Of a DNA stretch of 64,000 bases, positions 12,866 through 56,657 are shown piece by piece. A program made the translations under genes and the position numbers. Numbering within the stretch: the first letter of the stretch is position 1; every line of letters begins with the position of its first letter. A model generated the notes under the pieces. The model saw nothing but the letters and a program-made list of their open reading frames with translations. It was not told the origin of the DNA and ran no database searches. The stretch is from Candidatus Adlerbacteria bacterium (GTDB lineage: Bacteria; Patescibacteriota; Minisyncoccia; Phycocordibacterales; SBAW01). The stretch is taken from positions 109,451 to 173,450 of the forward strand of contig PLCJ01000002.1 of NCBI GenBank assembly GCA_003135635.1. Reading direction: 5' to 3'.

Positions 12866-12880
12866 AAGGATGTTCGAACC
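12866..12880 (-). repeat. copy of recurrent intergenic motif (minus-strand reading GGTTCGAACATCCTTC)
   Basis: plus strand gaaggatgttcgaacc; lies between a terminator hairpin and the SPFH gene start. Confidence 0.6.
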
Positions 12881-12890
12881 TGTTTAATTA

Positions 12891-12936
12891 TATAAAAAGA
12901 AAATCGCCCATCCATAGGCGATATTCTGGATGGGCG
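12891..12936 (-). terminator. rho-independent terminator of the 90-aa gene
   Basis: perfect 10-bp stem cgcccatcca/tggatgggcg with a 12-nt loop, followed on the minus strand by a T-run and TATATA. Confidence 0.55.
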
Positions 12937-12952
12937 GTCGGCGTTGGTTTCG

Positions 12953-13225
12953 TCACTGTGCGTTGCTGGCCACGCTCGCTTCGCACTCTTCAAGATAGCG
13001 AGCTGTGAACTCATGAAGAGAGAAGTTCGATCGAAAGCACTCAAGGAACTCCACAAGAGTCAGGCGGTGGCCGAAGTCACGGAGTATCCCCAACATTCTT
13101 ATGAACGACAGGTCAATGCAGATTTTCTCGGCAATCTGTCGGTCGAAGCGAAAATTAATGACTTCTTTGAGAAGATCTGCCCTTGACTTGGGGTGGTTGG
13201 TGCCTGCAGGATTGCTGTCTGGCAT
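12953..13225 (-). CDS. hypothetical small protein (90 aa)
   Basis: strong RBS AAGGAGG 6 nt before the ATG; flanked upstream and downstream by copies of the terminator/motif module. Confidence 0.55.
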   Translation of the reverse strand: MPDSNPAGTNHPKSRADLLKEVINFRFDRQIAEKICIDLSFIRMLGILRDFGHRLTLVEFLECFRSNFSLHEFTARYLEECEASVASNAQ

Positions 13226-13312
13226 GGGAAACCTCCTTATGGGTGCCAGTATCTGTTATCTTTATACTATATAATTTTGGTTTTGTCTATTTTTTCGTTT
13301 GCCCCACACCTT

Positions 13313-13328
13313 GGAAGATGTTAGAACC
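13313..13328 (-). repeat. copy of recurrent intergenic motif (GGTTCTAACATCTTCC)
   Basis: plus strand ggaagatgttagaacc; directly after terminator + TTTTTTATATACAATAG on the minus strand. Confidence 0.6.
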
Positions 13329-13334
13329 TATTGT

Positions 13335-13374
13335 ATATAAAAAAGATGAGCCTCGGACATGTCTGCCGAGGCTC
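13335..13374 (-). terminator. rho-independent terminator of the P-type ATPase gene
   Basis: gagcctcgg / ccgaggctc 9-bp stem with a 9-nt loop, then a T-run on the minus strand. Confidence 0.6.
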
Positions 13375-13376
13375 GA

Positions 13377-13392
13377 GAAGGATGTTGGTAAC
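13377..13392 (-). repeat. motif-like copy overlapping the ATPase 3' end (GTTACCAACATCCTTC)
   Basis: plus strand gaaggatgttggtaac, 13/16 identical to the copy at 12866. Confidence 0.4.
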
Positions 13393-15911
13393 TAATTCTT
13401 AACTAATGCCTTAAAGTACCATACTTTAATAACATCGACTATAAAGAAGTATATAAGTGTCAAAATAGCGAGTATCGCTAGCGTCACTAATGATAGGGGA
13501 GCAAAAGAAAACCATATTTGAAACTGTGGAATATAAATAATGCACAAAGAAAATAGGAATGCTAACGCGAATGAGATATTTAATACTGTAGATGGTTTTT
13601 TTGCGTTCCAAAATGATCTTTCACTGCGAACGCTATAAAATACAATCAACGCGATAAAGGTTAAAAATATATAGAGACTTGTCTCAACATAGCGTTGCGG
13701 TTCCAAACGAATGAGTAAAAAATAAAAAATTTCAAATAGTGCAGTTGGAATACCAAGAAGTATAGAAAGAAACATAAGTCTACGCACGTTATGTTTTTCG
13801 GGTCGTACCACCTCCTCGTCCGTAGTGCTATCAGTAGAAATCATAATCATGGGAATATCAGTAATAAGGCTGGTGAGCAAAATCTGTATAGGCAGAAGCG
13901 GCAAATCTGTTGAAAAGAGATAAAACATTGATAGGGCAATGAAATTACCGAAATTACTCACCATGGTGTGCTTGATATATTTATTTATGTTGACGAAAAT
14001 TGAACGTCCATATTTAATCCCGTTGATAATAACCTCAAGGCTGCTTTTTAGCAGAACAATATCAGCATTCTCTTTTGCAATGTCTGTTGCCGAATTTACT
14101 GCTATTGCTACATCTGCTAATTTTAGTGCAGGCGCATCGTTGATCCCATCACCCTGATAGGCAACGACATACTGCTTTTTGAGTATTTTAATAATGTTAT
14201 ATTTTTGCGTGGAGGTAACCCTGGCAAAAATATTACTTGTGGTAATTGCCGCTTCAAGCTGGCTCGGGGACATTTTTTCAAGTTCATTCCCAAGATACAC
14301 CTGCCCGCCTTCTTTCATTAACCCAATTTGCTCTCCAATATATTGAGCTACCTCTCTGCTATCTCCGGTGAGAATTTTAATGCGTATGCCTAATTTTTCT
14401 GCTCGCTGAAGAGTATTTTTTACACCCGGGCGTAATGGATCGTCCATAGAGACATACCCCAAGAAAGTAAGTCCTTCCTCGTGTTTGAGAATATCGAAAT
14501 CATCACTATAGGAAACCTCACGGTAGGCAAGAGCTAAATGGTGTAATCCTGTTTTACCTTCCTTGGTAATGTTCTCTAGATATGCTGCGGTATGGACATG
14601 CTTGGTTATCTGAAGCAATACTTCTGGGGCGCCGATAACAACCAGAAAATATTTTTTAGTATGCGTATCCTCCAAAACCATCCTGCTTCTTCGGTCATTG
14701 GGGTCAAACGGTAATTCTTTAATAATCCGTAGTGCTGCTGCCTTCTTTTTGAGTGACTCTGACACATAGTTGAAAAATGCATCATCGTAGGAATTTTGTG
14801 TTCTATGTTTTCTTGTTTTTAGTGGTGCAATAGCAGCAAATGCAAGGATTTGAAACAACTCAACATCGCTTGAGACAACACTGCGTATTTGCATCTTATT
14901 CTCTGTAATAGTCCCCGTTTTATCGGTACACAAGAGATTTACGTTTCCAAGATCCTCCAGTGCCGACAGCCTCTTCACCACAACGTGCTTTTGAGCCAGT
15001 GCGAGAGCTCCACGGGAAAGAGAAATGGTGGCAATGACTGGCAATACCTCCGGTACCACCGCAACGGCCATTGCAATAATAAATAACAAAAGACCACTAA
15101 TGTTGGATAATCCTCCGTTGAGAATGAGCTTTGAAATGAAGAGTGCCGCCAAGCCTATGAAAACAAACTTAACAAGAAATGTGCTAAATGATTGCAGCGA
15201 CTGCTCATAGGGTGTTTCTTTTTTTGTGGAGAGCGATAACTCTGCAATGGCTCCGAGCTCAGTGTTTTTTCCAGTCGCATACACGACACCTACCGCAACG
15301 CCCCTCTCAATGATGCTCCCAGTAAAAACTAAGTTTTTCTCTGAAAGAGCATGCTCTTTTGAGACTTGTTTTATCACGGGCAATGATTCTCCGGTAAGTT
15401 GTGATTCATTGACCTCTAAATCTGTTACCTGAAGTAATCGCATATCTGCGGGTACAATATCTCCCTCGCGAATCATGAGTACATCGCCTGGAACTATTTG
15501 TGTAGTATCAAGGAGCATCTCCTTGTCATCACGTCTGAGCCTCACCTGCGTCGTAATGAATTGCTCGAGTTTTTCTATAATTTTTTCAGATCTATATTCT
15601 TGAAAAAAACTTAGCGTTATATTGATAAGTAGGATAACCGCAATAATAGTGCCATCTGAATAGTCCCCGATACTATAGGAAATAAGTGTTGCCGCGAGCA
15701 GGAGATATACAAGAGAACTGCGCAACTGACGAATTAAAATGGTGCGCGCATGGTCATGGTGTCTTACGAATACGTTTTTACCGTAGCGAAGAAGTCGTGC
15801 GTGCGCATCGCTTTGGCTAAGACCCCCTATTGATGTCTCAAGCCTACCGAGAAATTCCTCTGTACTTAACGTAAGAACTTCTTTTTTATCCATACCAGAA
15901 TAGTCCATCAT
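13392..15911 (-). CDS. cation-transporting P-type ATPase (MgtA/Ca2+-ATPase-like)
   Basis: phosphorylation motif CTDKTGTITENKM, TGES, PEVLP in TM4, hinge GDGINDAPALKLADVAIAV; 10 predicted TM helices. Confidence 0.9.
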   Translation of the reverse strand: MMDYSGMDKKEVLTLSTEEFLGRLETSIGGLSQSDAHARLLRYGKNVFVRHHDHARTILIRQLRSSLVYLLLAATLISYSIGDYSDGTIIAVILLINITLSFFQEYRSEKIIEKLEQFITTQVRLRRDDKEMLLDTTQIVPGDVLMIREGDIVPADMRLLQVTDLEVNESQLTGESLPVIKQVSKEHALSEKNLVFTGSIIERGVAVGVVYATGKNTELGAIAELSLSTKKETPYEQSLQSFSTFLVKFVFIGLAALFISKLILNGGLSNISGLLLFIIAMAVAVVPEVLPVIATISLSRGALALAQKHVVVKRLSALEDLGNVNLLCTDKTGTITENKMQIRSVVSSDVELFQILAFAAIAPLKTRKHRTQNSYDDAFFNYVSESLKKKAAALRIIKELPFDPNDRRSRMVLEDTHTKKYFLVVIGAPEVLLQITKHVHTAAYLENITKEGKTGLHHLALAYREVSYSDDFDILKHEEGLTFLGYVSMDDPLRPGVKNTLQRAEKLGIRIKILTGDSREVAQYIGEQIGLMKEGGQVYLGNELEKMSPSQLEAAITTSNIFARVTSTQKYNIIKILKKQYVVAYQGDGINDAPALKLADVAIAVNSATDIAKENADIVLLKSSLEVIINGIKYGRSIFVNINKYIKHTMVSNFGNFIALSMFYLFSTDLPLLPIQILLTSLITDIPMIMISTDSTTDEEVVRPEKHNVRRLMFLSILLGIPTALFEIFYFLLIRLEPQRYVETSLYIFLTFIALIVFYSVRSERSFWNAKKPSTVLNISFALAFLFSLCIIYIPQFQIWFSFAPLSLVTLAILAILTLIYFFIVDVIKVWYFKALVKN

Positions 15912-15948
15912 GAGTTGGAGTGTATGTCACAGTGATATTGTATACTGA

Positions 15949-20839: not shown

Positions 20840-22066
20840 CTATTCATATCGCAGTGCTTCGATGGGATTAAGTGAAGCAGCACGACGAGCGGGATAATAA
20901 CCAAATATAATACCAATTATTGCTGAAACTCCGAAAGCCAATACTATAGCTATCCACGATACGGTAGTATGGATTACTCCTGAATAGGAAACACCGAGAG
21001 AAATCGCCACACCAAGAATAATACCGATTGTCCCTCCCACAAGCGTTAACGCTACTGCTTCGGTTAGGAACTGAAGGCTAATGTCACCTTGTTTTGCGCC
21101 GATTGCCTTACGAAGACCGATTTCACGGGTACGTTCTGTTACTGTGGTAAGCATCATATTCATAATACCAATTCCTCCTACAATAAGAGAAATACCAGCC
21201 ACGGCAGCAAGTAATATGGTAAAAGTTTGGGTAATACTGTTGGCAGTGGCAAGGAGGGTACTTTCGTTGAGGACACTAAAATCAGCCTGCGCGGGGTTGC
21301 TAATATTGTGGCGCGTTAAGAGAAGGTCCGTGATATCATTTTGCACTTGTGTCATCACACTGGCGTCTGTGGCTTGGACATCTATCGTGGAGAGGTATTG
21401 ATTGCCCGCGAGATACTGCTCGGCACTTGTTGCAGGAATATATATCATATCGTCTTGATTATTAAATCCACTGCTACCCTTGCTCACGGTTATGCCGATG
21501 ACAGTAAATTCAAGGTTCTTGATGCGAATTATTTGCCCCACAACCCCCACCGCACCAACTCCAAAAAGGTCATCTCGAGCGGTAGGACCTAGCACCGCGA
21601 CTTTCGCCAGTGAAGTATTTTCCTGGTCGGTAATGAAAGAACCTTCTGCAATCTGGATGTTACGGATTTGTGGATACGCAGACGTTACTCCATCAACTGA
21701 GGTGTTGGTGTTAGTCCCCCTTGCGGTTATTTGGTAGCGACCGGATACTTCTGAGGCTACTGCTGCAATATTTGTTACTTGGGAGGCGATAGCATCTGCA
21801 TCTCCCTGCGTAAGACTGCGTGCCGTTCCACGACCACTTGATACCTGAGAGCCTGGCCCCCCCTGGGCTCCAGGAGTTATTTCTATGAGATTTGATCCAA
21901 GTGATTGGATACTACTTTGTATAGAACTTTGTGCACCTTGCCCTATGGAAACCATAGCAATGACAGATGAAATACCGATGACAATGCCAAGTACGGTGAG
22001 CCCGGAGCGTATTTTGTTTGCCGAAAGGGCAGTGTATGTTTCTTGTAGAATATCGCCAAACTTCAT
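20840..22066 (-). CDS. ABC transporter permease, MacB/FtsX-like
   Basis: N-terminal TM, large extracytoplasmic domain, C-terminal 3 TM (FtsX fold). Confidence 0.8.
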   Translation of the reverse strand: MKFGDILQETYTALSANKIRSGLTVLGIVIGISSVIAMVSIGQGAQSSIQSSIQSLGSNLIEITPGAQGGPGSQVSSGRGTARSLTQGDADAIASQVTNIAAVASEVSGRYQITARGTNTNTSVDGVTSAYPQIRNIQIAEGSFITDQENTSLAKVAVLGPTARDDLFGVGAVGVVGQIIRIKNLEFTVIGITVSKGSSGFNNQDDMIYIPATSAEQYLAGNQYLSTIDVQATDASVMTQVQNDITDLLLTRHNISNPAQADFSVLNESTLLATANSITQTFTILLAAVAGISLIVGGIGIMNMMLTTVTERTREIGLRKAIGAKQGDISLQFLTEAVALTLVGGTIGIILGVAISLGVSYSGVIHTTVSWIAIVLAFGVSAIIGIIFGYYPARRAASLNPIEALRYE

Positions 22067-22070
22067 AACA

Positions 22071-22769
22071 TTATGTGGTCTGCCCTGGGCGATTGCGGTG
22101 GTCAGAGAGGATCACCCCATCTCGAAGGGTAATGATGCGTCTGGCATGGGCTGCGACATGCTGCTCGTGGGTGATGAGCACTACGGTACAGCCCTGTTTT
22201 TCGTTGAGCTCTTGAAAGGTACTCAGTACGATTTCTCCGGTCTTGCTATCAAGGTTACCAGTTGGTTCATCGGCAAGTATCAGCGAGGGATCGTTTACCA
22301 GCGCTCGGGCTATCGCCACACGTTGTATCTGACCGCCGGAGAGTTCATTGCTGAGATGAGAAAAATGGGTCTTTGTGAGACCCGCAGCCAGAAGTGAAGT
22401 AGACGCACGCTCTTCGCGGTTTTCTTCATCAACTCCCGCATATATAAGCGGCAGCATCACGTTGCGCAAAACAGTTGTACGAGGTAAAAGATTAAAGGAC
22501 TGAAAAACAAAACCAATTTTATCTTTTCGTATTTCGGCAAGCTCGTCATCTTCCATTTTCGAAACATCCTTTCCGTCAAGGAAGTACGTTCCTGATGTTG
22601 GGATATCAAGGCACCCCAAAATATGCATCAGGGTAGATTTTCCTGAGCCGGACGGTCCCATGATAGCGACAAACTCGCCGTCATTAATAGTAAACGATAC
22701 TCCCTTGAGTGCTTGGAGCGCCATTTCTCCAGAGCCGTAGGTCTTAGTGATATCTTTTATTTCAATCAT
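22071..22769 (-). CDS. ABC transporter ATP-binding protein (MacB/LolD-type)
   Basis: Walker [10 protein letters not shown], signature [15 protein letters not shown], Walker [12 protein letters not shown]. Confidence 0.9.
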
Positions 22770-22792
22770 TACTCTTGCCGTCCATAGTCTCG

Positions 22793-24565
22793 TTATAATC
22801 CGATGGTCCTGGCACCACCTCCACCAAAACCAGTGCGGCTGGTGCTGACCGCAGCTGCTGAGGCAGTCGTTTGTCCCGTAGTGGTGCGTACAACAATTTG
22901 CTCTCCTGCTGTTAACCCGGAGACTATCTCGGTATTCGTGTTATCGGTGAGTCCCGCTACAACAGGGACTTGCTGGGGCGCTACGCTGGAGAGTACTCCT
23001 TGAGTGCTCCCAGTATTTGCCAGCGGGGGAGTAAACACCAGAACATATGTTGCAGCAGCTTGTGTCGTTTTGACGGCACCTGAAGGGACGGTGAGTACAT
23101 TTTGATGCGCGGCAGTAATGATTGCTGCACTGGTTGTCATGCCTGCTTTTATGCGTGGGTCTTGGGAATCAAATCCCACCTGCACATCGTACGTCACCAC
23201 TCCTTGGCTTACGGTGCCAGTCGGATTTATTTGTGCCACCACTCCGGTGAGTGTGAGACCACTGATAGCATCAAAAGTGAGAGTAGTTTCGTCACCCAAC
23301 TGTATCTTTGCTGCATCGACTTCATTGACCTGAAGATCAACATACTGCTTTGTCGTGATGAGGGTTGCTAGGGTCGTACCGGAGCCAGCCTGGTCGTACA
23401 CGTGAACGGGCACGGAGCCAATGACACCAGAAAAAGGTGCAGTGATATAATATTCTGCAAGGGTATTTTCTGCCTGCTGAAGCGCTTCTTGTGCTTTCGT
23501 TATGCTCAATTGACTGGACTCCACATCGATAGGATCAGCTCCCGCTTGTGTTTGCTGTAGGGTTTGCTGTGTTACGGTGATGTTATTTTTATCGGTCACG
23601 AGAGTATTGCTATCGGAAAGGAGAGTCGTGAGATGCGACTGCGCTTTGCTTTGATAACTATTAAGGCTAGCTATCTGAGTTGCGGAAACGGGCTTTGGCG
23701 TTGCACCATTTTTGGTGAGTTGATCAGTGTAAAATCCAAGAAGGTTGTTTGAGCTGGTGACCGCCGTCGCCAGAAGTCCTGTTGTTACGTCCGTCTCTTT
23801 GAGCAAGTTCTCAATTGTCTGCGGGTCGGGAGTCGAACTTACTGCCTTGAAATCAGAAAGCGTCTGGTCATAGGATTGCCGCGCAGCCAGATAGTCGTTG
23901 TATGCGATCGTACGATAGGAGGATGCCTGCGGGCTGTATTGAGAGGCCTGCGTGGTGTAATAATCCATATTCCATTGGCTTGCGCCTCCTGCTTCGCTGC
24001 CGAGATTGATGTCTTGAAGACCAGCGATGATGGTAGGAAGATCAAGAAAAGTATTGGTGATGTCGCCAAATGTACTTTGATACAAGCTCGCCAGAGCTTG
24101 TTGGGCCTGAGTGATTGAGTCTTGTTGCTGGGTGAGCGTGAGGGCGGTTGAGGGCTCCTGTAGTTTTTGAAGTGCCAACTGCGCACTTTGTAAATTTTCT
24201 TTGGCGCTTTGCACTGCTTGTTGTGCGGTGGTTGAGTTTAACTGCGCAATAACCTGTCCTGCTCTCACTTGTTCTCCCGGTTTGACCGCGATGTAGGTGA
24301 TTTGTCCGGAGACTTGAGGTTGGATATTGAGCGTGTCAGTTGAGGTGATCTGTCCGCTCTCTGACACGGACGCAACGATAGTGCCTGTCGCCACACCACC
24401 CAGCACGTAGCGTGTCTGGTTGTTCGTGTTTGTGGCTAAGGCAGATGTTGCCCACCATCCTGCCCCCACGAGGCCGAGCACTATGATAGCGCTCCATACC
24501 TTATGTCGCACGATGAAGTTTTTTATCGCTCCAATATATCCTTTTATTTTTGTTCGTACGGCCAT
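22793..24565 (-). CDS. HlyD-family periplasmic adaptor (membrane fusion protein)
   Basis: N-terminal TM anchor, lipoyl-like hairpin segments, very long Q/A/T-rich coiled coil, C-terminal beta-barrel region. Confidence 0.7.
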   Translation of the reverse strand: MAVRTKIKGYIGAIKNFIVRHKVWSAIIVLGLVGAGWWATSALATNTNNQTRYVLGGVATGTIVASVSESGQITSTDTLNIQPQVSGQITYIAVKPGEQVRAGQVIAQLNSTTAQQAVQSAKENLQSAQLALQKLQEPSTALTLTQQQDSITQAQQALASLYQSTFGDITNTFLDLPTIIAGLQDINLGSEAGGASQWNMDYYTTQASQYSPQASSYRTIAYNDYLAARQSYDQTLSDFKAVSSTPDPQTIENLLKETDVTTGLLATAVTSSNNLLGFYTDQLTKNGATPKPVSATQIASLNSYQSKAQSHLTTLLSDSNTLVTDKNNITVTQQTLQQTQAGADPIDVESSQLSITKAQEALQQAENTLAEYYITAPFSGVIGSVPVHVYDQAGSGTTLATLITTKQYVDLQVNEVDAAKIQLGDETTLTFDAISGLTLTGVVAQINPTGTVSQGVVTYDVQVGFDSQDPRIKAGMTTSAAIITAAHQNVLTVPSGAVKTTQAAATYVLVFTPPLANTGSTQGVLSSVAPQQVPVVAGLTDNTNTEIVSGLTAGEQIVVRTTTGQTTASAAAVSTSRTGFGGGGARTIGL

Positions 24566-24591
24566 ATGTGCAGATTTTTTTGTATAAAATT

Positions 24592-25056
24592 TTACTGTTG
24601 TCTAGGGGGAAGTGGCATGGGCGGCAGTATGCGGATAAGTTGCGCTTCAATATACCCTTGCGTGTCGGGCTCTCCCAACACAATTACTGCCTCTCCTTGG
24701 CTGAGTGTGGTACTTGTTGCCTCACCATGAATGATCGTTGAGGTGCTAACAAGAATAGTCTCGCTACTACCGGTACGAGTCTGCAGAGTAAGCAGTGGCA
24801 ACGCGACGTTTGTTAGGGTGCCCACCGCTCCATGACCGTCTTCTATAAATTCGTGTGGGAGAGGAAACATACCAAATGGTGTGGCAAAGGATCCAGGACC
24901 GTGATTAAACGGAGGAACACGCTCAAAGCCATGCCGCTCAGCCTCAAATAGCATACCGAGATTGAAAATAAGTATGACAACAATGCAGCCACCGAGGATA
25001 CCAAGCCCCATACGCGTGCGCCGCGACTCCCAGATTTTTTTTACCTCATCAGACAT
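24592..25056 (-). CDS. hypothetical single-pass membrane protein
   Basis: 154 aa, one TM (LGILGGCIVVILIFNLGMLF) and an extracytoplasmic domain. Confidence 0.45.
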   Translation of the reverse strand: MSDEVKKIWESRRTRMGLGILGGCIVVILIFNLGMLFEAERHGFERVPPFNHGPGSFATPFGMFPLPHEFIEDGHGAVGTLTNVALPLLTLQTRTGSSETILVSTSTIIHGEATSTTLSQGEAVIVLGEPDTQGYIEAQLIRILPPMPLPPRQQ

Positions 25057-25065
25057 AGCAACGCC

Positions 25066-25482
25066 TTATGCGCCTACTGGAGTAAATGCATATCGAACAT
25101 TGCGTGGTATGCGTGAAAGTGACCACCCAAATACTCCTGCGCATACAAGTACGCCTGCTATTGCAAAGGAAGGCAATGATTCAAGAAGCAGGTAGCTGAA
25201 GGTTTGCCAAAAAGAGAAAATTACGTTGTGATCGGAAACCATAAGAGAAAGATAATCATAAAATCCCGAAGCATAAAATTCCTGAACCGCGTAGGAAAGT
25301 GCGGAAATAAGAGCAACACCAGAAAAAAGTGCCACTGTGGCGGTTATGCCTATTTGGATACGGGCAGCACGACGCCGCACAGCAGCAACGTGCTGAAGTA
25401 CGACTCCACAAAGAGCCTGAGGAGGCACAACTTCTTTTAGAAACGTGTACAGATAATCCTGCATGCCAATACATACGAACAC
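25066..25482 (-). CDS. hypothetical membrane protein (candidate anti-sigma factor)
   Basis: 138 aa, several TM segments, immediately downstream of the ECF sigma gene; the role is inferred from position only. Confidence 0.35.
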   Translation of the reverse strand: MFVCIGMQDYLYTFLKEVVPPQALCGVVLQHVAAVRRRAARIQIGITATVALFSGVALISALSYAVQEFYASGFYDYLSLMVSDHNVIFSFWQTFSYLLLESLPSFAIAGVLVCAGVFGWSLSRIPRNVRYAFTPVGA

Positions 25483-25548
25483 CAGGCTCTATTTGGTGCG
25501 CCCAGCCTCCCGATACATAGAGGGGGAAGTATGGGGCTATCCAGGCAA

Positions 25549-26115
25549 TCAAGGTGATGCATCCAGGAGTTTGCGCAAAATTATAAGGGCTCGGTAGTGT
25601 CGACTTTTAACGGTGTTCGTAGGTTGCTTGAGGATTTTGCCTATTTCTTCAAAAGTCAGTCGGTTCGTGTAATGGAGTAGCAGCACATCACGTTGAGAGG
25701 GAGGGAGAGTGGTTATTGCTTCTTGCAGATCCTTTTCGTCCTCGCCTCGTATCATCATTTCTTCTGCAAGGAGCTCAGTATCGGATACCGTCTCTTCGAG
25801 AATATTTTTCCCTTGGGCGGTTTCAAATGTCGAAAACGGAATTTGTTTTTTCTTGCGTATCTTGTCAACAGCGGTGTTGCGTGCGATACGCATAAGCCAT
25901 GTGGTAAATTTTCCTGCGCTTACCTTGTATCGATGTATATTCCGCCATACTTTCACAAATGTCTCTTGAGTGATATCTTCTGCATCATATTCGCTTCCCG
26001 TGAATCGCAGAGCAAAGGAATATACCATAGTGAGATTGCGTCGCGTGAGTTCCTCAAAAGCGTTTTCATTTCCGCGCACGTATAAGGCGATAAGCTCTTC
26101 ATTGGATTGCTCCAT
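25549..26115 (-). CDS. ECF-type RNA polymerase sigma-70 factor
   Basis: region 2 (TMVYSFALRFTGSEYDAEDITQETFVKVW) and region 4 HTH (LTFEEIGKILKQPTNTVKSRHYRAL); start placed at the internal MEQSNEEL Met; the track ORF extends to 26184. Confidence 0.8.
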   Translation of the reverse strand: MEQSNEELIALYVRGNENAFEELTRRNLTMVYSFALRFTGSEYDAEDITQETFVKVWRNIHRYKVSAGKFTTWLMRIARNTAVDKIRKKKQIPFSTFETAQGKNILEETVSDTELLAEEMMIRGEDEKDLQEAITTLPPSQRDVLLLHYTNRLTFEEIGKILKQPTNTVKSRHYRALIILRKLLDASP

Positions 26116-34107: not shown

Positions 34108-34129
34108 GTGGATGATGTTAGAAACTATT
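34108..34129 (-). repeat. copy of recurrent intergenic motif (TAGTTTCTAACATCATCCAC)
   Basis: plus strand gtggatgatgttagaaactatt; on the minus strand it follows terminator + TTTTTTATATAG. Confidence 0.6.
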
Positions 34130-34151: not shown

Positions 34152-34181
34152 AAAAAAGAAGCGTCGACAAAAGCCGACGCT
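34152..34181 (-). terminator. rho-independent terminator downstream of the tRNA-like gene
   Basis: agcgtcg / cgacgct stem, then a T-run on the minus strand. Confidence 0.5.
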
Positions 34182-39422: not shown

Positions 39423-39451
39423 TACAAATAACTCGAATCCTATTGTTTAGA

Positions 39452-39494
39452 GAAATAAAGAAGCCCCGCCGAAGCAAGACTACTTCAAGCGGGA
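39452..39494 (-). terminator. rho-independent terminator; near-identical copy at 56571 in inverted orientation
   Basis: minus strand TCCCGCTTGAAGTAGTCTTGCTTCGGCGGGGCTTCTTTATTTC: two-tier hairpin plus T-rich tail. Confidence 0.6.
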
Positions 39495-41782: not shown

Positions 41783-42403
41783 ATGAGGAGATACGCTTTC
41801 ATTGATGTTCATAATACTGCCAGCACCGCTCAGCAAATGTTGGGAATTGTTATAGATTGGGCTAAATTGTGTGATTATCTAAAAAACAAAAGGTCTTGTA
41901 CTGAAGTTTTCTTCTACACTGGGATTGATCAAGGGGACGCGGAAACTGCTAACGAATTTGAAGCACTCTCTAAAATCAGCTGCTGTATGGTTAGAAGTAA
42001 AGCCGTTTTCGCCTATAAGAATAAGGATAAAGTCGTCGCTCTTAAGTGCGTGAAGTGTGGTAACGAGAACGTCCATATTGTAAATATGGGTTATACAAAA
42101 AAATCCAATTGCGATGTGGAGTTATCTGTAGACGCAATTGAAAAATCAGGCCCAGAAGTCGAGCTAATGATATTTACTGCGGACGGTGATTTTGAATATC
42201 TTATACGCAAAGCCTTAGACAAGGGTGTAATCAAGGTTGAGGTCGTTTCTTATGCAGGTAAAGATATACAAGCTGGGATGACCATATCCAGGTTCTCTAC
42301 AAAGCTAAGAAACTTATTCACTGAAAAACCAAATAAGGTCATTTATACTTCCCTTAGGGACATAAAGGATATAATTAAGAAGACAGTGCCCATTGCTGCT
42401 TAA
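41783..42403 (+). CDS. NYN (LabA-like PIN-fold) domain protein with internal zinc ribbon
   Basis: YAFIDVHN N-terminus, IFTADGDFEYLIRKALDKG block, CVKCGNEN. Confidence 0.7.
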   Translation: MRRYAFIDVHNTASTAQQMLGIVIDWAKLCDYLKNKRSCTEVFFYTGIDQGDAETANEFEALSKISCCMVRSKAVFAYKNKDKVVALKCVKCGNENVHIVNMGYTKKSNCDVELSVDAIEKSGPEVELMIFTADGDFEYLIRKALDKGVIKVEVVSYAGKDIQAGMTISRFSTKLRNLFTEKPNKVIYTSLRDIKDIIKKTVPIAA

Positions 42404-43843: not shown

Positions 43844-43955
43844 ATTTGAGAGTTGTTAGAAGCTTTCTTATAGAACTATTTGTGTTGCCTCACCTGGGCC
43901 GGTGCGCTACCGTAAGAAAACACCCGCGTGCACCAAAAACAGACAGTTTGATAAA

Positions 43956-50880: not shown

Positions 50881-50881
50881 T

Positions 50882-51397: not shown

Positions 51398-52087
51398 GTG
51401 AAAGAGAGAGCAAAAGGAAAAGCGATTTTCATCGACGGTGCATCTGCACACGTTACGAAAAGCGCCCTCGGAATAGGGACATATAATTTTCACGGTCTCT
51501 ATGATGTATTGCGGAATGAGGTCGGCACGTGCCGCAGGATTGTCGGCATTCCAATCGTAACGGTGGGCCCCGATGCGTATGAAAGGGGATATGGACTTGT
51601 AAAAGATCTGGCAGGCGCCGGATTTAATGTCGTTCCAGCTCGAAGTGATAATGGGGAGGATGACGAGTTTATCAAGACGCGCATTCGAGGCCTTGATCCT
51701 CGGGAAGTCGAGGAGATTGTCATTTTTACTTCCGACAAGGACTTCATCCCGGTTCTTAGAGAAAAGGCCAATGTGGGGGTTAGGATTTATTGGGTCTCAA
51801 CCAAGCATCATGAGCCAGGTCTCAACCGTCACTGTCTTTCCCAGGATGTCATCCAATTGTGCATGACAACACCAGGTTTCAGTTTCGTCGAGATCGCCGA
51901 GTTCAAAGGGGCAATCACTGGCAAACGACCATGGTCAACCGCCACCGCCACTTCCTATAAAAAGGAGGACGTCACGATTGTTACGATCCGGCTTCAAAAT
52001 ATGTATAAAGAAGAACATGGGCGACTTATTCGCAGTATCCAGTCGCTTACTTCTGAGTTCGCCGGACTAACTTTCATCGTCGAGTAG
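51398..52087 (+). CDS. NYN (LabA-like) domain protein with extra C-terminal domain
   Basis: GTG start; AIFIDGASAHV and IVIFTSDKDFIPVLREKANVGVRIYWVS blocks. Confidence 0.65.
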   Translation: MKERAKGKAIFIDGASAHVTKSALGIGTYNFHGLYDVLRNEVGTCRRIVGIPIVTVGPDAYERGYGLVKDLAGAGFNVVPARSDNGEDDEFIKTRIRGLDPREVEEIVIFTSDKDFIPVLREKANVGVRIYWVSTKHHEPGLNRHCLSQDVIQLCMTTPGFSFVEIAEFKGAITGKRPWSTATATSYKKEDVTIVTIRLQNMYKEEHGRLIRSIQSLTSEFAGLTFIVE

Positions 52088-52127
52088 TAGTTCAACGGGG
52101 CCAAAGAGTTCCCAGTACTCTTCTTGA

Positions 52128-52163
52128 GGGCAGCATCACAATGTGACCTGCCCTTTTTCTTTT
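52128..52163 (+). terminator. rho-independent terminator
   Basis: GGGCAG / CTGCCC stem followed by TTTTTCTTTTTAATATA. Confidence 0.55.
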
Positions 52164-52190: not shown

Positions 52191-52216
52191 AAACGGCTCT
52201 AACATCGTCCGAGATG
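52191..52216 (+). repeat. copy of recurrent intergenic motif (AAAACGGCTCTAACATCGTCCGAG)
   Basis: preceded by terminator + TAATATAATGAATCACC; followed by TTGACT at 52225. Confidence 0.6.
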
Positions 52217-52274
52217 CGGTTACTTTGACTCATTTTTATATTTGAAGTAAGTTTGAAACGGAAAGGAGTCTCAT

Positions 52275-52757: not shown

Positions 52758-52797
52758 GAGCCCCTATGCACGGATGCATAGGGGCTCTCAGTTTTAT
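52758..52797 (+). terminator. rho-independent terminator
   Basis: perfect 13-bp stem gagcccctatgca / tgcataggggctc, 4-nt loop, then TCAGTTTTATAT. Confidence 0.65.
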
Positions 52798-52838
52798 ATG
52801 TACACAATGGTGAATCACGTAGTGGGGGGTAGAGGGTC

Positions 52839-52865
52839 AAAACGGTTCTAGTGTCATCCACAACC
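52839..52865 (+). repeat. copy of recurrent intergenic motif (AAAACGGTTCTAGTGTCATCCACAACC)
   Basis: preceded by terminator + TTTTATATGTACACAATGGTGAATCACG. Confidence 0.55.
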
Positions 52866-52895
52866 TTTAGCACGTAAATTTGCTAAAATTACAGT

Positions 52896-53069
52896 ATGAA
52901 ATCGCTCAGATATATTGCGCTCATAGGAAATGCAATGTATATCCTCTGGATCTTGTATAATGGTATTGATGAAGGATCTCGTAGTGTTGGCAGTGTTGAG
53001 ATAGTCTCACTTATCGGTCTATTTTTTCTGTTGTTTCTAAATATTGTCCTCTTGTGGAGGCAAAAATAG
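52896..53069 (+). CDS. hypothetical small membrane protein (57 aa), possibly leaderless
   Basis: two hydrophobic helices; TAAAAT box ends 6 nt before the ATG; below the ORF-track cutoff; the stop codon sits inside the next motif copy. Confidence 0.35.
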   Translation: MKSLRYIALIGNAMYILWILYNGIDEGSRSVGSVEIVSLIGLFFLLFLNIVLLWRQK

Positions 53070-53088
53070 TTCTGACGTCGTCCACAGG
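53063..53088 (+). repeat. copy of recurrent intergenic motif (AAAAATAGTTCTGACGTCGTCCACAGG)
   Basis: immediately upstream of the -35 element TTGACA of the DoxX promoter. Confidence 0.55.
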
Positions 53089-53097
53089 CTGCAGCTA

Positions 53098-53125
53098 TTG
53101 ACAGTGGCGTATACTTAACTATATA
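53098..53125 (+). promoter_or_regulatory. sigma70-like promoter of the DoxX gene
   Basis: TTGACA (53098-53103), 16-nt spacer, TATATA (53120-53125), ~18 nt to the ATG. Confidence 0.5.
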
Positions 53126-53143
53126 TCCATCCAATAATTAAAT

Positions 53144-53557
53144 ATGAAAAGTATTCATACTTTTGTGCATCGATTTAATAATCCAGATTTTGGCATTTTG
53201 CTTATTCGCCTTGCATTTGGCCTTGTGTTTATTAATGCTGGGTGGATGAAAATAACTTCGATGGACACTACTATCCAATCCTTTGGCACACTCGGCTTTT
53301 CTCCATTTCTTGCGTATTTCGTCGCATGGGCAGAACTTATCGGCGGTGTTGCTTTTATAGTCGGTATCTTTAGTCGCTACGCCGGGATTATACTTACCAT
53401 TATTATGGTGGTTGCGGTTAAAATTCTTTTTGTAAAAGGATTTTCTTTGGCGCATGGTGGTTATGAATTTCCTCTGGTGGCTATGCTTGGTTCGCTCGCG
53501 ATTGTGACATTTGGCTCTGGTGCGTATTCTCTTGCACGAATGCTCAAACGCCGATAA
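53144..53557 (+). CDS. DoxX-family membrane protein
   Basis: GILLIRLAFGLVFINAGWMKI DoxX N-terminal block; 4 TM; 137 aa. Confidence 0.7.
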   Translation: MKSIHTFVHRFNNPDFGILLIRLAFGLVFINAGWMKITSMDTTIQSFGTLGFSPFLAYFVAWAELIGGVAFIVGIFSRYAGIILTIIMVVAVKILFVKGFSLAHGGYEFPLVAMLGSLAIVTFGSGAYSLARMLKRR

Positions 53558-53600
53558 AAATTCCTCGACCTGTTTGTAGAAGCAGTAGAGCAATCTACTA

Positions 53601-53626
53601 ATATAGTTCTAACGTTATACGCGACC
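53601..53626 (+). repeat. copy of recurrent intergenic motif (ATATAGTTCTAACGTTATACGCGACC)
   Basis: followed by CTGCAGCATTGATA, as the copy at 53063 is by CTGCAGCTATTGACA. Confidence 0.55.
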
Positions 53627-53748
53627 TGCAGCATTGATAAAATTAAGATTGGTTTCATCATTAAAGCTTTCTATACCTGTTAAAGAGTAGTTAGTTGGAC
53701 AAACTCTCATTTTTCATGTAAAAGTAGATTCAGAAGGAGGGGTTCCCA

Positions 53749-54051
53749 GTGACAAAATCTCTTTGCCACGTGCTTCATATGGACGATACCAATTGCTTCT
53801 TGATTGTGGCATGGATGCCGATGCATGAGTGGAAATCTGTCCCCATCTCAGGAGCAAGTGAGCTTCAAAAACGCTACGACTACAGTCTTGACCTTTTTCC
53901 TGATGAAATATTCGGCTTGTTCATGTGGTATAGAGTGGCAAAAAATCCACCACTTCCAATCCGAAAGCTTAAAAGGGCTTTTGCTCTAGATCTGCAGCGT
54001 TACCTTGAACTTGACACTCGGCCTGAGATTGTTCCTACTCGATCTCAGTAG
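53749..54051 (+). CDS. hypothetical protein (100 aa), island cassette gene
   Basis: GTG start 10 nt after GAAGGAGGGG; own terminator. Confidence 0.5.
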   Translation: MTKSLCHVLHMDDTNCFLIVAWMPMHEWKSVPISGASELQKRYDYSLDLFPDEIFGLFMWYRVAKNPPLPIRKLKRAFALDLQRYLELDTRPEIVPTRSQ

Positions 54052-54084
54052 ACCTCGCAATACCATGCGAGGTCTTTCTTTTCT
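54051..54084 (+). terminator. rho-independent terminator
   Basis: gacctcgca / tgcgaggtc stem, 6-nt loop, then TTTCTTTTCT. Confidence 0.6.
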
Positions 54085-54092
54085 AGTACTCC

Positions 54093-54122
54093 TTGACAGA
54101 TAGCATATGTATCAGCTAAATA
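54093..54122 (+). promoter_or_regulatory. sigma70-like promoter
   Basis: TTGACA (54093-54098), 18-nt spacer, TAAATA. Confidence 0.4.
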
Positions 54123-54239
54123 TGTCTAGTTCTTTGAGAAGGGGAGGTTGCCCCAACCTTAGGTCACTCAATTTCTAGGCGACTTTAGGCTACGACGACA
54201 CCTTCGCCCGACTAACGCACTAAGTATAAGGAGTAACCA

Positions 54240-54749
54240 GTGATAACAATTTCAGAAGCCAAACAGCGAGGGCCGCTCAGAGGCCACTTGCGTACAGTGC
54301 TTCCGATGGCCGAGCGATTTTCGGTCGGCAATGAAATACGTGTTGGAGCTGTCATCGGAAAACACCCGGTCACGCACGTTGGTCGCAACTTCCTGCAATG
54401 GTTCGGTTTCCTAATGGAAAACGTTCCGTCCGCCGAGATTAAAAGCTGGGGACTCGCCCCCACATCCACGGTTTCTCTCTCGAATCAATCGATCATAGAG
54501 TCGTTGGGAGGTGAGAAAACGGCAGTAACGTCCGTCGTCCGGATGGTCCAGGTGATAAAGCTCGGGGACTTAGGTCCCGGTCATTTTCACGGCTGGGACA
54601 ATCTGCACTACATCAGGCGGTTCGGAACAAACGAGATCTGCGTTGTTGCTTGGTCCCTCGCCGACAGAGGGCTGCGCTTCTACGCGTTTTCCATTTCGGA
54701 TTCCGATGGGGATGTGTGGCGCCCGGGCCACCGCGTCTTTAGCGGCTGA
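54240..54749 (+). CDS. hypothetical protein (169 aa), island cassette gene
   Basis: GTG start after TAAGGAG; GC-rich coding sequence; no recognisable domain. Confidence 0.5.
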   Translation: MITISEAKQRGPLRGHLRTVLPMAERFSVGNEIRVGAVIGKHPVTHVGRNFLQWFGFLMENVPSAEIKSWGLAPTSTVSLSNQSIIESLGGEKTAVTSVVRMVQVIKLGDLGPGHFHGWDNLHYIRRFGTNEICVVAWSLADRGLRFYAFSISDSDGDVWRPGHRVFSG

Positions 54750-54943
54750 TCTTTTACAACGCACAAATGCAAAGGGTATCGGAATAATCTGGTGCCCTTT
54801 TTTGTTTTATCTCTAAACAATGGTGATCCACTAAGGTAGTGTAGACGCACAATACTATCTCTATTGCTTTTGGTAACTTTCCCAAGCATAATTCCAAAAG
54901 ACCTGTCCTTATACTAAATACTAAAGATAGAAAGAGAGGCCAT

Positions 54944-55207
54944 ATGCGTACCATGCATGGAGCAAAGGCTAGGGTAGCGGCTCAACAGCGTGCCGCAAAG
55001 CACCTCTCCAGAGAATCTGTTGTCTTTCTTGGACACAGGAAAAACGATCAAGGAGAGACGGTTGGAGATTTCGAGTTTCAAGGTACTGAAACACGACTGG
55101 TCTCGCTCAATGAGGCTGGGTGGAGGCGGCGATTGCAATTCCTTAAGAAATCTGGATACCCTCATGACATAACCAAGCAGGTTCTTAAGGAATGGCCAGA
55201 TGAATGA
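54944..55207 (+). CDS. hypothetical protein (87 aa)
   Basis: ATG preceded by AAAGAGAGG; basic protein. Confidence 0.45.
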   Translation: MRTMHGAKARVAAQQRAAKHLSRESVVFLGHRKNDQGETVGDFEFQGTETRLVSLNEAGWRRRLQFLKKSGYPHDITKQVLKEWPDE

Positions 55208-55312
55208 CATTCCCTGGCGTTCTTAAGTTTCGCGAAGGCATCGGATTACTCCGGTGCCTCTTGCTTTTACATATAGTTCCCAACCAAAAAACACCTTAAT
55301 ATAAGGTTGTTT

Positions 55313-55338
55313 TATAGATTAACATATGTTAATCTATA
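55313..55338. promoter_or_regulatory. perfect 26-bp palindrome, probable autoregulatory operator of the HTH-Doc operon
   Basis: TATAGATTAACATATGTTAATCTATA ending 3 nt before the HTH gene ATG. Confidence 0.5.
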
Positions 55339-55341
55339 AAT

Positions 55342-55617
55342 ATGGCTATAAATAAGGATATTAATTACCAAACCTATATTTCAGCCCCAGAGTTGGCTAA
55401 GCTTATGGGCGTCAGTAGAATAACCATTTTTAAGAAAATAAAGGCAGGGAAAATACACGCACAGAAAGTTGGTAGAAACTACATCATACCCGCCGAGGAA
55501 ATAGCCATTGCAGTAGGAGAACTTGTCTCTCCTAAAAAGAAAGAAGAGATTGAGAAGGTAGTAAAAAGGGCGGTCAAAGAATACCGAGAGGCTTTTCAGT
55601 TGCTTGGGCGAGAATAA
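55342..55617 (+). CDS. excisionase-family HTH DNA-binding protein (putative antitoxin)
   Basis: HTH_17-like block ISAPELAKLMGVSRITIFKKIKAGKIHAQKVGRNYIIP. Confidence 0.7.
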   Translation: MAINKDINYQTYISAPELAKLMGVSRITIFKKIKAGKIHAQKVGRNYIIPAEEIAIAVGELVSPKKKEEIEKVVKRAVKEYREAFQLLGRE

Positions 55618-55620
55618 ATT

Positions 55621-56088
55621 ATGGCAAGGAGACCGATAAAAAAATTGTCGGTTCTCGAAGTGGAATATGTAGCTCATCGGCTTGCGCAAGAGTTGATGGA
55701 ATATGGCGAGCCTATCCCTCCTTTCGATACTCGTTCTCCCCATCGCCTTGAAAGTTGTCTGGAAACACCATTTCAGAAATACCTCAATAAAAGTCTTTAC
55801 GACGGTATCATTCGCAAAGCAGCGATGCTTTTTTATTTGATGATAAAAAATCATCCGTTCCAAAATGGAAATAAACGAGTAGCAATTTTAACCACTCTCG
55901 TATTTCTTAGTCAAAATGGACGTTGGATTCAAGTAGACAATCTCCCTTTGTATGAATTTGCAAAAGAAGTAGCGAAGAGCGACTCATCCAAAAGTAAAGA
56001 AGAGGTAGAAAAGATAGTTGCTTTTATGACCACCAATATGATTCTTCTTCCTTTGGAAGATGAAATTATAGAGGATGAAACCATCTAG
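55621..56088 (+). CDS. Fic/Doc family toxin
   Basis: Fic motif HPFQNGNKRVAIL (HxFx[DEN]GNKR). Confidence 0.8.
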   Translation: MARRPIKKLSVLEVEYVAHRLAQELMEYGEPIPPFDTRSPHRLESCLETPFQKYLNKSLYDGIIRKAAMLFYLMIKNHPFQNGNKRVAILTTLVFLSQNGRWIQVDNLPLYEFAKEVAKSDSSKSKEEVEKIVAFMTTNMILLPLEDEIIEDETI

Positions 56089-56188
56089 GGTAATTAAGTA
56101 TATAGTTCCCAATTGTTGTTACTTGACAGATACTTTGTACATGTTATCGTGTTAACAACTGATCTTTGTTTCTCAGAAAGGAACCCTA

Positions 56189-56551
56189 ATGCACTATAAT
56201 CGGCTACTTGCCTTGATAGGCATATTCTATGTCCTCTTCGGGCTTGCTCAGCTCCATCCATCTTGGATCACGGGTCATCTCAGCCGGAGTCTCGAGACCG
56301 GATTAACTGGTGGGATTCTTATCGTCGGGGCAGTCATAATGGGGATAATCATTTACGGCATGAGGCCGCACCTCACTCTCTTCCTTGTGTCGTTTGGAGC
56401 TCTGTTTCTTGAGCTTTGGATCGGTGTGAGGCAGCTCTTCGCAGGAGATTCTAGCGGATTTCCTCAACCGTGGCTGATCGTGCTTCCGCTTTTTAACGGT
56501 CTGATTATTATTCTCTACGCCCGTGATAAGTCCCCAAAGAGAGCGGGTTAA
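56189..56551 (+). CDS. hypothetical polytopic membrane protein
   Basis: 120 aa, 4 TM; preceded by TTGACA promoter and a motif-like ATATAGTTCCCAA. Confidence 0.45.
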   Translation: MHYNRLLALIGIFYVLFGLAQLHPSWITGHLSRSLETGLTGGILIVGAVIMGIIIYGMRPHLTLFLVSFGALFLELWIGVRQLFAGDSSGFPQPWLIVLPLFNGLIIILYARDKSPKRAG

Positions 56552-56570
56552 GTGACCGTTGTTCAACTCT

Positions 56571-56612
56571 TCCCGCTTGAAGTAGTCTTGCTTCGGCGGG
56601 ACTTCTTTATTT
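56571..56612 (+). terminator. rho-independent terminator; near-identical copy of 39452-39494
   Basis: TCCCGCTTGAAGTAGTCTTGCTTCGGCGGGACTTCTTTATTTCC, 41/42 identical to the reverse complement of 39452-39494. Confidence 0.6.
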
Positions 56613-56642
56613 CCATACACCATCATAGTGAGCTGCGGGGTA

Positions 56643-56657
56643 GGGGATGTTAGAATC
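56643..56657 (-). repeat. copy of recurrent intergenic motif (GATTCTAACATCCCC)
   Basis: plus strand ggggatgttagaatc, between the terminator and the DedA-like gene. Confidence 0.5.

Follow-up and report, generated by a model that had tools for sequence, protein, structure and literature searches.

Across 64,000 nucleotides of a Candidatus Adlerbacteria genome (phylum Patescibacteriota; assembly GCA_003135635.1, contig PLCJ01000002.1, positions 109,451 to 173,450; hereafter the window), one short word recurs in the gaps between genes, which raises the question of whether it is a genuine element and what might read it. A first-pass annotation, made from the sequence alone, had listed eleven copies or variants and proposed a shared operator or UP-like element, a conserved 5'-leader or RNA-processing motif, or relics of attachment (att) sites derived from tRNA genes. 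Here, we find that the word, which we call the box, is a real, non-random element of 16-18 bases that reads in one direction, with the skeleton GGTTCnAACnTCnTnC, and we tentatively favour a role as a protein-read boundary between transcription units. The window has a G+C content of 46%, slightly lower in box-rich segments, belongs to a contig of 340 kb, and is 100% identical in all assemblies of the genome compared (ENA ERZ19973380 c_000000010050; NCBI, JGI and Logan). The nearest species representatives of its P-type ATPase are Staskawiczbacteria and Paceibacterota metagenome-assembled genomes, at only 50-62% identity.

Occurrence and intergenic confinement

A position matrix was scanned over the window and over an extended area of 82.8 kb that adds 10 kb fetched on each side, and a separate matrix was built from 15 foreign copies only, taken from other genomes. 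At a score of at least 16, the first matrix returned 14 strong copies in the 82.8 kb, all 14 of them intergenic. The foreign-copy matrix gave 12 matches at a score of at least 12, where first-order Markov randomisations averaged 2.5 and never exceeded 5, and nine at a score of at least 14, against 0.63 expected. All 12 matches are intergenic, with intergenic DNA accounting for just 10.9% of the sequence. A simple search for TCTAACATCNTCC with at most one mismatch found three occurrences where 0.24 were expected, a number reached in none of 100 shuffles. The excess of foreign-matrix matches together with their uniformly intergenic location establishes the box as a real, non-random element.

Within the window, eight copies score between 16.4 and 23.2 and a weaker one, at 13377-13394(-), scores 12.8; further degenerate copies (56690-56707(+), 57295-57312(-), 54079-54092(+), 39428-39445(-) and 43848-43881(-)) are included in Table 1. 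The upstream 10-kb flank adds five plus-strand copies, one perfect and four of a TTCCAAC sub-type; in the glycosyltransferase operon on the downstream side, no box was found. Overall density is about one box per 6 kb, the box has an information content of about 17 bits, and roughly a third of the transcription-unit junctions in the window genome carry a box. The housekeeping operons of the window (ATP synthase, uvrABC, glycosyltransferases) have none.

These results bear out much of what had been described. All eleven sites reported earlier are present at or within a few bases of their positions, every strong copy is intergenic, and the family of at least nine copies proves larger than claimed. 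The core said to be shared by all eleven scores strongly in eight copies and more weakly at 13377, whereas those at 55271 and 56100 match its 5' half (ATATAGTTCC) only. The overlap of the 13377 copy with the end of the ATPase gene is confined to the stop codon, whose TAG is the motif's own, and the copies at 12866 and 13313 do flank the 90-aa gene as direct repeats, at about 80% identity with an indel rather than 85%. The succession of hairpin, T-run and ATAT(A), described for at least five copies, precedes those at 12866, 13313, 34108, 52191 and 52839, and the -35-like hexamer reported after most plus-strand copies is found as TTGAC or TTGAT behind three of four, 13-14 nt past the TCC.

Anatomy of the box and absence of structure

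Alignment of 22 copies without insertions yields a near-invariant skeleton, G3 G4 T5 T6 C7 n A9 A10 C11 n T13 C14 n T16 n C18, in which positions 8, 12, 15 and 17 are free. The core extends to about 30 bp with the consensus AAA-TAGGTTCTAACATCGTCC-N7-GCAGC, comprising a weak A-rich extension on the 5' side, often AAA(T)A, and, exactly 7 nt past the box, a weakly conserved GCAGC/GGAGC/CCAGC block. The 18-mer has a G+C content of 43% and is asymmetric and non-palindromic. Such an alternation of invariant and free positions, retained across differing genomes, points to a sequence-specific protein-binding site, since neither a decaying repeat nor a base-pairing target would give this pattern.

The conserved part shows no sign of folding. 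Folding z-scores came to +0.2 to +1.4, eight box-to-promoter modules folded as single-stranded DNA did no better than shuffled sequences (z from -0.35 to +1.41), and RNAalifold on nine hairpin-plus-box sequences returned 0 consensus pairs. Rfam scans gave only tRNAs above threshold, with nothing overlapping a box even at an E-value of up to 5. On these negatives, the proposed conserved 5'-leader or RNA-processing motif is not supported as a structured RNA, and a riboswitch or other structured RNA was likewise rejected.

The terminator hairpins near the boxes are genuine, with 13 terminator-like sites in the island at 51.9-57.5 kb against 5.3 expected; their sequences are unrelated and their distance to the box is variable. 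The T-run and ATATA tail also occurs at terminators without a box (window 34044(+), L015 ~18706) and is thus a general terminator feature of these genomes, not specific to the box. (Contigs are designated by L numbers; L099 and L100 are stretches of the window genome, not foreign contigs.)

Anchoring to the upstream transcription unit

For position and orientation, we compiled a tally of 29-30 copies from the window genome and its relatives. About 25 of 29 copies have a gene or tRNA of the same orientation upstream, and for about 19 of 29 the stop codon or terminator T-run of that upstream gene is no more than 60 nt away. Typically, the box starts at the upstream stop codon or 10-50 nt past the terminator T-run; its own TAG or TAA supplies the stop codon of the upstream gene at window 13377 and 53066 and at L029 3490 and 4451, and the upstream stop codon directly abuts the motif at L099 4732 and 9549. 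A co-oriented downstream gene within 300 nt accompanies only about 19 of 30 copies. At least seven copies face a convergent gene (window 34110, L099 7500, L029 3490 and 1684, L015 4608, L040 and L126), and the next recognisable promoter stands anywhere from 1 to more than 370 nt away from the box. The upstream rule is broken four times, by the inverted copy at window 56642 and by L015 8369, L029 2602 and L073 in divergent regions.

The genes between boxes are mostly small orphans without Pfam, PHROG or database relatives. A PHROGs search of ten box-flanked proteins gave no match, and a homologue search with box-flanked orphan proteins returned only the proteins themselves.

Conservation in distant relatives

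Related genomes were found using the neighbouring Band7/slipin protein as bait. The same skeleton is present in contigs of 38-52% G+C (L015, L029, L040, L056, L073, L102 and L126), so that the suggested search of related genomes located the motif in several distant Patescibacteria contigs; even the slow-evolving Band7 gene shares just 70-78% DNA identity between the window and those box contigs that carry it. L015 (50% G+C) has four copies and L029 (38% G+C) has six within 4.8 kb, and copies are present in L040, L056 and L073 too. In L056, the box ends 18 nt before tRNA-His, where no other obvious promoter is seen. In L102 and L126, drawn from a viral collection, the box lies 6-12 nt past a terminator T-run, and L102 represents the host flank of a prophage. 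Most other relatives have no box: next to Band7, only four of 80 loci carry one, and L132 and L133 have none. Gene order is not conserved in the mapped relatives (L015-L018, L132 and L133).

The bait itself (window 12014-12760) encodes a protein 79-93% identical across contigs with unrelated gene order. The L132 copy is 91% identical; this contig carries a full cytochrome oxidase operon and is unlikely to come from Patescibacteria. Band7/slipin is either extremely conserved or horizontally transferred.

The clearest case is L029, which lacks intrinsic terminators, with five found against 4.0 expected. Four of its six boxes begin at, or no more than 13 nt from, the stop codon of an unrelated small gene; a fifth is in a divergent region, and the sixth runs past the contig edge on its upstream side. 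The layout in this contig is the box, 0-31 variable nt, an invariant ATCAGGCGGAGC, a -35, TATAAT, 6-7 nt and the ATG of a leaderless gene. Two boxes are interrupted at the same point by an identical 23-nt insertion, CTTCGGCGAACTCAGGGTAAACC, which occupies 2563-2585 and ~4706-4728(-). Leaderless geometry, with a TATAAT-like sequence 6-7 nt before the start and no Shine-Dalgarno sequence, was observed at L029 2507-2535, 4645-4673, ~4370 and 3925 and at L099 4220-4234; other window genes have clear GGAGG sites, so that leadered and leaderless genes are mixed.

Searches beyond these contigs were negative. The 33-nt consensus gave no meaningful match in 50,697 phage records or 72,556 plasmids, and a composite pattern found none in IMG/VR. 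A 17-mer scan of IMG/VR gave 28 matches, mostly within one conserved phage gene, and the only true terminator-plus-box arrangements were those of L102 and L126. In L107, L112, L113, L117, L119 and L128-L131, the string AAGGTTCTAACGTC(A/G)TCC lies inside this conserved phage coding region, whose reverse strand reads roughly WDDVRTFDGKPW; these viral-contig matches are a coding coincidence and not a related element. A phage or plasmid origin was rejected on the lack of meaningful consensus matches in the phage and plasmid records, of composite-pattern matches in IMG/VR and of PHROG matches. Literature searched for the motif strings and for Patescibacteria promoter or LexA motifs held no description of the box, an element conserved in a limited set of lineages.

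A candidate boundary element in copied junction modules

Our preferred reading, held tentatively and at somewhat less than even probability, is that the box is a protein-binding boundary or insulator box with a stoperator-like logic, forming part of junction modules (terminator, box and promoter) that spread by copying among small orphan genes. A putative sequence-specific DNA-binding protein, conserved in a subset of Patescibacteria, would read the box as double-stranded DNA. Tied to the 3' end of the preceding transcription unit, sharing its orientation and lying ahead of the next promoter, the box would most likely act as a polar boundary at which the bound protein halts or marks read-through transcription, and it may additionally serve the next promoter as an upstream operator. 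Both the protein binding and the insulating function are inferences from sequence patterns. A boundary role is favoured because the tight link to a co-oriented upstream unit persists where genes converge and where hairpin terminators are lacking from the genome. Operator and boundary roles could coexist, and an operator acting only next to a promoter is the poorer fit.

Whole terminator-box-promoter modules would be copied from junction to junction. Modules are evidently copied in this way because they are paralogous within a genome yet stand between unrelated small orphan genes: L029 4451 and 4003 are alike from box to ATG, window 53066 and 53603 are alike from box to -35, and the Band7 and DoxX promoters are alike in parts.

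Two repeats were also recorded in the window. A 22-nt stretch at 12759-12780, just ahead of or at the Band7 start, is 82% similar to the DoxX promoter spacer at 53105-53126 (GTATACTTAACT...), so that the two unrelated genes have paralogous promoter regions. Positions 39442-39494 and 56571-56623 form a 53-nt inverted repeat, 91% complementary, which represents the same terminator hairpin and T-rich tail behind two unrelated genes, a 72-aa gene on the minus strand and a 120-aa gene on the plus strand; this shared terminator is another sign of intergenic modules being copied.

Several points weigh against a boundary role. No cognate binding protein was identified for the box, the sample comprises about 30 copies overall, and gene calls in the relatives are crude. 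The inverted or divergent copies at window 56642, L015 8369, L029 2602 and L073 would be roadblocks without an obvious target. Because the window boxes often follow strong intrinsic terminators, a second stop signal looks redundant there, and the -35 hexamer found 1-6 nt past the box in six copies fits a promoter-linked role equally. The two insertion-bearing boxes of L029 were still duplicated, so the module spreads regardless of box integrity.

Alternative readings

An upstream operator or activator site, by which a global regulator would control the small accessory genes after each box, is in our judgement unlikely, although several copies have the geometry for it. Apart from the 19 or so of 30 copies with a co-oriented gene within 300 nt, a -35-like hexamer stands 1-6 nt past the GCAGC/GGAGC block at window 52193, 53066 and 53603, L015 8369, and L029 4451 and 4003; the boxes at L099 4182 and in L073 end 20-23 nt before TATAAT, the position of a class II activator; and the L029 pair 4451 and 4003 shows box and promoter duplicated as one. 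However, the distance from box to promoter varies from 1 to more than 370 nt (L102; L099 6883), at least seven copies lack a downstream gene in their own orientation, the box is tied more closely to the upstream stop or terminator than to the downstream start, and the regulon would have to span roughly a third of transcription-unit junctions. Among the earlier proposals, the shared operator or UP-like element nonetheless comes closest: conservation without structure fits protein-binding DNA, but the element is not UP-like, being poor in neither G nor C and standing anywhere from 1 to more than 370 nt from the -35. A sigma-70 UP element proper, an A/T-rich tract fixed at -40 to -60, was rejected on the 43% G+C of the 18-mer and on this variable distance.

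Could the boxes instead be junctions of gene cassettes, that is, recombination or insertion sites or scars for gene-plus-terminator units, integron-like but without a hairpin? We consider this distinctly unlikely. Arrays of unrelated small orphans, every one delimited by a box in its own orientation (window 52.2-53.6 kb, L029 and L099), direct copies that flank one gene (13313/12866) or even a lone terminator (13377/13313), a stop codon inside the box as is frequent in attC, a TCTAAC that resembles the attC inverse core RYYYAAC, homogenisation of copies within a genome, insertions inside boxes, and associated genes without homologues or phage-family matches would all suit such a site. What speaks against it is the lack of dyad symmetry, of a partner GTTAGA core and of a single-strand hairpin, together with the absence of a recombinase next to the window arrays and of visible target-site duplications or terminal inverted repeats; the assemblies of the genome are identical, with no mobility observed, and the alternation of fixed and free positions, kept in distant genomes, is what a binding site would show, not a decaying repeat. 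The gene calls covered, those of the window and of L099 and L100, include no recombinase domain.

It is similarly improbable that the box itself serves an alternative sigma factor or unusual holoenzyme as promoter, with TAACAT (positions 8-13) as -10, GGTTC as an upstream extension and a start at about C18-A19. In 17 of 28 copies, positions 8-13 read TAnnnT, A9 and T13 hardly vary, like A-11 and T-7 of -10 elements, an A/T-rich tract or terminator T-run lies upstream, the L056 box stands before tRNA-His with no rival promoter in sight, and the window encodes an extracytoplasmic function (ECF) sigma factor. Yet there is neither a conserved -35 nor a TG extension, many copies are followed by good sigma-70 promoters, in some cases of leaderless geometry, about 30% of copies would, as promoters, be orphans directed into convergent genes, no box precedes the ECF sigma gene, and the start of boxes at stop codons is left unexplained. 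An autoregulated ECF promoter was rejected for the same gene (25549-26115): an AAC and a weak AGC 16 nt later do exist in the box, but no box stands upstream of the gene, and the at least seven copies without a downstream gene also argue against an ECF sigma promoter. A fixed -10 downstream of the box was excluded as well, TAnnnT peaking only within the box itself.

An unstructured RNA signal in 3' untranslated regions or read-through transcripts, such as a site for RNase processing, Rho loading or boxA-like NusB/NusE binding, is very unlikely. Boxes that come right after a stop codon without a terminator (L029; window 13377 and 53066) must be co-transcribed with the upstream gene, the region carries less structure than shuffled controls, and GGYTCTAAC resembles boxA (GCTCTTTAACAA), with 7 of 11 positions in common with lambda nutR boxA. 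Most window copies, however, follow efficient-looking terminators and would rarely be transcribed, boxA elements sit in leaders, before terminators rather than after them, interspersed free positions are unlike a base-pairing target, and no extended C>G bubble exists beyond the 18-mer (C/G = 1.05); on this lack of C>G bias, a Rho utilization (rut) site was rejected.

The last proposal, att relics left by tRNA-integrating elements and derived from a tRNA T-arm or 3' end, is effectively refuted. It drew on GGTTCGAAC, found in copy 12865 and in the L015 copies, which resembles the T-loop GGTTCGAATCC, on three copies within 100 nt of a tRNA (window 34110, L015 4608 and L056 793) and on a serine recombinase that adjoins tRNA-Asn in L015. 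The matrix, however, gives no real T-arm a score of 8 or more, no T-stem complement is present, and ARAGORN and Rfam call nothing at any copy. In the 12 kb after tRNA-Ala, which cover the 51.2-56.7 kb island, the 3' region of this tRNA is repeated at most as a chance 11-mer from the anticodon arm, so that no copy of the 3' end recurs there. Copies are far too numerous and follow gene orientation, and the clustering beside tRNAs noted in the first-pass annotation reduces to the three of about 30 copies just named.

Comparison with known systems

The favoured reading as a boundary box finds its nearest counterpart in the stoperators of Cluster A mycobacteriophages (L5/Bxb1 repressor sites). Stoperators are asymmetric, present in many copies, placed in short intergenic spaces and set in one main orientation, all of which the box shares, and they act on elongating polymerase and not at the promoter, as the box would. 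In contrast to these sites, as generally known from the phage system, the boxes are chromosomal, occur in several cellular lineages, have an unrelated sequence and lie among no prophage genes (none by PHROGs), and the cognate repressor is putative. PeSL (promoter early stem-loop) cassettes of T4-type phages resemble the box modules in combining a stem-loop and a promoter between small novel open reading frames (ORFs) in plastic regions, and in being paralogous as whole modules while the flanked genes are unrelated. PeSLs, however, are phage early promoters without a separate conserved box, whereas here terminator and promoter are separated by a box of 18-30 bp that distant cellular genomes retain, even where the hairpin is missing (L029).

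Other systems share single features. Integron attC sites likewise mark the 3' ends of unrelated small ORFs in one shared orientation, can contain the stop codon and have RYYYAAC where the box has TCTAAC, but the box has no inverted-repeat architecture, GTTRRRY partner, folded single strand or nearby integrase; attC was rejected because, despite a TTCTAAC-like 5' core, no folding hairpin and no GTTAGA partner within 150 nt downstream was found. Repetitive extragenic palindromes and bacterial interspersed mosaic elements (REP/BIME) of enterobacteria, which bind gyrase and integration host factor, are likewise interspersed, intergenic and placed at the 3' ends of units. REPs, however, are conserved palindromic hairpins, whereas the hairpins near the boxes are ordinary terminators of unrelated sequence and it is an unstructured part that is conserved; a REP-type or miniature inverted-repeat (MITE) element was rejected, the box being asymmetric and the alignments free of terminal inverted repeats and target-site duplications. 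With the alphaproteobacterial LexA box (GTTC-N7-GTTC) and OmpR/PhoB-type direct repeats, many copies share a GTTC-N7-GTYC spacing, which suggests tandem binding on one helix face; unlike LexA boxes, they do not lie over DNA-repair promoters, are far too many and have a weak second half-site (nTmC). The insertion-free unit of 28 nt recalls dif, which we take to be a 28-bp site with an inner dyad (ATAA-N6-TTAT) in a single copy per replicon, but a dif/Xer site was rejected for want of an inner dyad and for the many copies. The E. coli Ter site (ATGTTGTAAC), dif, boxA and the LexA box were compared by eye, and none fits the architecture and location.

Coordinates of the box copies and neighbouring loci

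Table 1. Box copies, terminators and predicted promoters in the window.
Feature	Coordinates	Strand	Score	Context
Box copy CAGGTTCGAACATCCTTC	12865..12882	-	22.7	After terminator of 90-aa gene, 105 nt before Band7/slipin gene
Terminator hairpin, 90-aa gene	12905..12936	-		Intrinsic
Box copy TAGGTTCTAACATCTTCC	13313..13330	-	23.2	11 nt past T-run of P-type ATPase terminator, 88 nt before 90-aa gene
Terminator hairpin, ATPase gene	13348..13374	-		Intrinsic; between the 13377 and 13313 copies
Weaker copy TAGTTACCAACATCCTTC	13377..13394	-	12.8	TAG is stop codon of P-type ATPase; precedes terminator hairpin
Box copy TAGTTTCTAACATCATCC	34110..34127	-	22.2	33 nt past start of terminator tail (27 nt past TTTTTT) of tRNA-Leu(taa); faces convergent gene, no co-oriented gene downstream
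Terminator hairpin after tRNA-Leu	34160..34181	-
Degenerate copy CAATAGGATTCGAGTTAT	39428..39445	-		After 53-nt shared terminator repeat; weak
Degenerate copy	43848..43881	-
Terminator hairpin after NYN gene	52127..52154	+
Box copy ACGGCTCTAACATCGTCC	52193..52210	+	21.4	After NYN gene terminator, before 135-aa orphan gene
Predicted sigma-70-type promoter TTGACT-N17-TAAGTT	52225..52253	+		Putative; starts 14 nt past box
Terminator hairpin after 135-aa gene	52758..52787	+		13-bp stem
Box copy ACGGTTCTAGTGTCATCC	52842..52859	+	16.7	After terminator 52758-52787, before 57-aa gene
Box copy ATAGTTCTGACGTCGTCC	53066..53083	+	21.0	TAG is stop codon of 57-aa gene; 7 nt, then GCAGC, TTGACA-N16-TATATA and DoxX gene
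Predicted DoxX sigma-70-type promoter TTGACA-N16-TATATA	53098..53125	+		Consensus match; starts 2 nt past GCAGC block
Box copy ATAGTTCTAACGTTATAC	53603..53620	+	17.7	46 nt past DoxX stop; 7 nt, then GCAGC, then TTGATA
Compressed variant TTTTCTAGTACTCC	54079..54092	+		Fused to terminator T-run, TTGACA directly after; weak, our reading
Half-copy ATATAGTTCCCAACC	55271..55285	+		After terminator; resembles upstream TTCCAAC sub-family
Half-copy ATATAGTTCCCAATT	56100..56114	+		Then TTGACA-N16-TATCGT
Box copy CTGATTCTAACATCCCCT	56642..56659	-	16.4	Inverted relative to both flanking plus-strand genes; exception to orientation rule
Partial copy TGAGTTCTAAATTCATTT	56690..56707	+	12.7 / 14.7 (foreign matrix)	8 nt before VTT-domain gene; inverted relative to 56642(-) copy, 30 nt apart
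Degenerate copy CTATAGTTCATGACGTGG	57295..57312	-		Preceded by CTTTTTTATATA; inverted between two plus-strand genes

Other features of the window and its relatives were recorded alongside the boxes. NYN-domain (PIN-like nuclease) genes stand beside box-rich stretches of small orphans in two genomes (window 41837-42403 and 51398-52087; L015 7600-8241), one of those in the window directly after tRNA-Ala. A perfect 30-bp palindrome at 55311-55340 (TTTATAGATTAACAT/ATGTTAATCTATAAA) lies directly upstream of a gene pair encoding HTH_17 (91 aa) and Fic/DOC (155 aa) proteins at 55342-56088, and is probably the autoregulatory operator of a toxin-antitoxin-like module. An ORF of 169 aa at 54240-54749, with a GTG start, a good AAGGAG site and its own terminator, is uncalled in the public annotation.

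On the minus strand at 20840-26115, the ECF sigma gene, two small uncharacterised genes and an efflux set (RND-adaptor, ABC and MacB-FtsX components) form a probable envelope-stress unit, which has no box. In L015, a large serine recombinase gene (4509-6149) adjoins, and as called overlaps, tRNA-Asn (4476-4548), with box-like sequence between them; the locus may be an integrated element containing the Band7 region of that genome.

Biological significance

Candidate Phyla Radiation bacteria are hard to culture and encode few recognisable regulators, and to our knowledge almost nothing is known of how they punctuate and regulate transcription. By analogy, the closest parallels of the box are stoperators and phage regulatory cassettes. 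Two stronger interpretations can be put forward, at a probability that we regard as low even for the two taken together: the boxes would be either a genome-wide chromosomal stoperator-like system in ultra-small Patescibacteria, partly replacing hairpins in L029-like lineages, or a hairpin-less gene-cassette recombination site that assembles arrays of orphan genes.

The box could serve as bait in pull-down or DNA affinity purification sequencing (DAP-seq) for a lineage-specific DNA-binding protein, its effect could be read from existing metatranscriptomes, and it marks plastic, orphan-gene-rich parts of these genomes. Were it a true roadblock terminator or insulator, or a new cassette site, the mechanism would be one undescribed for cellular genomes; were it an ordinary operator, it would still define the first large regulon in the group.

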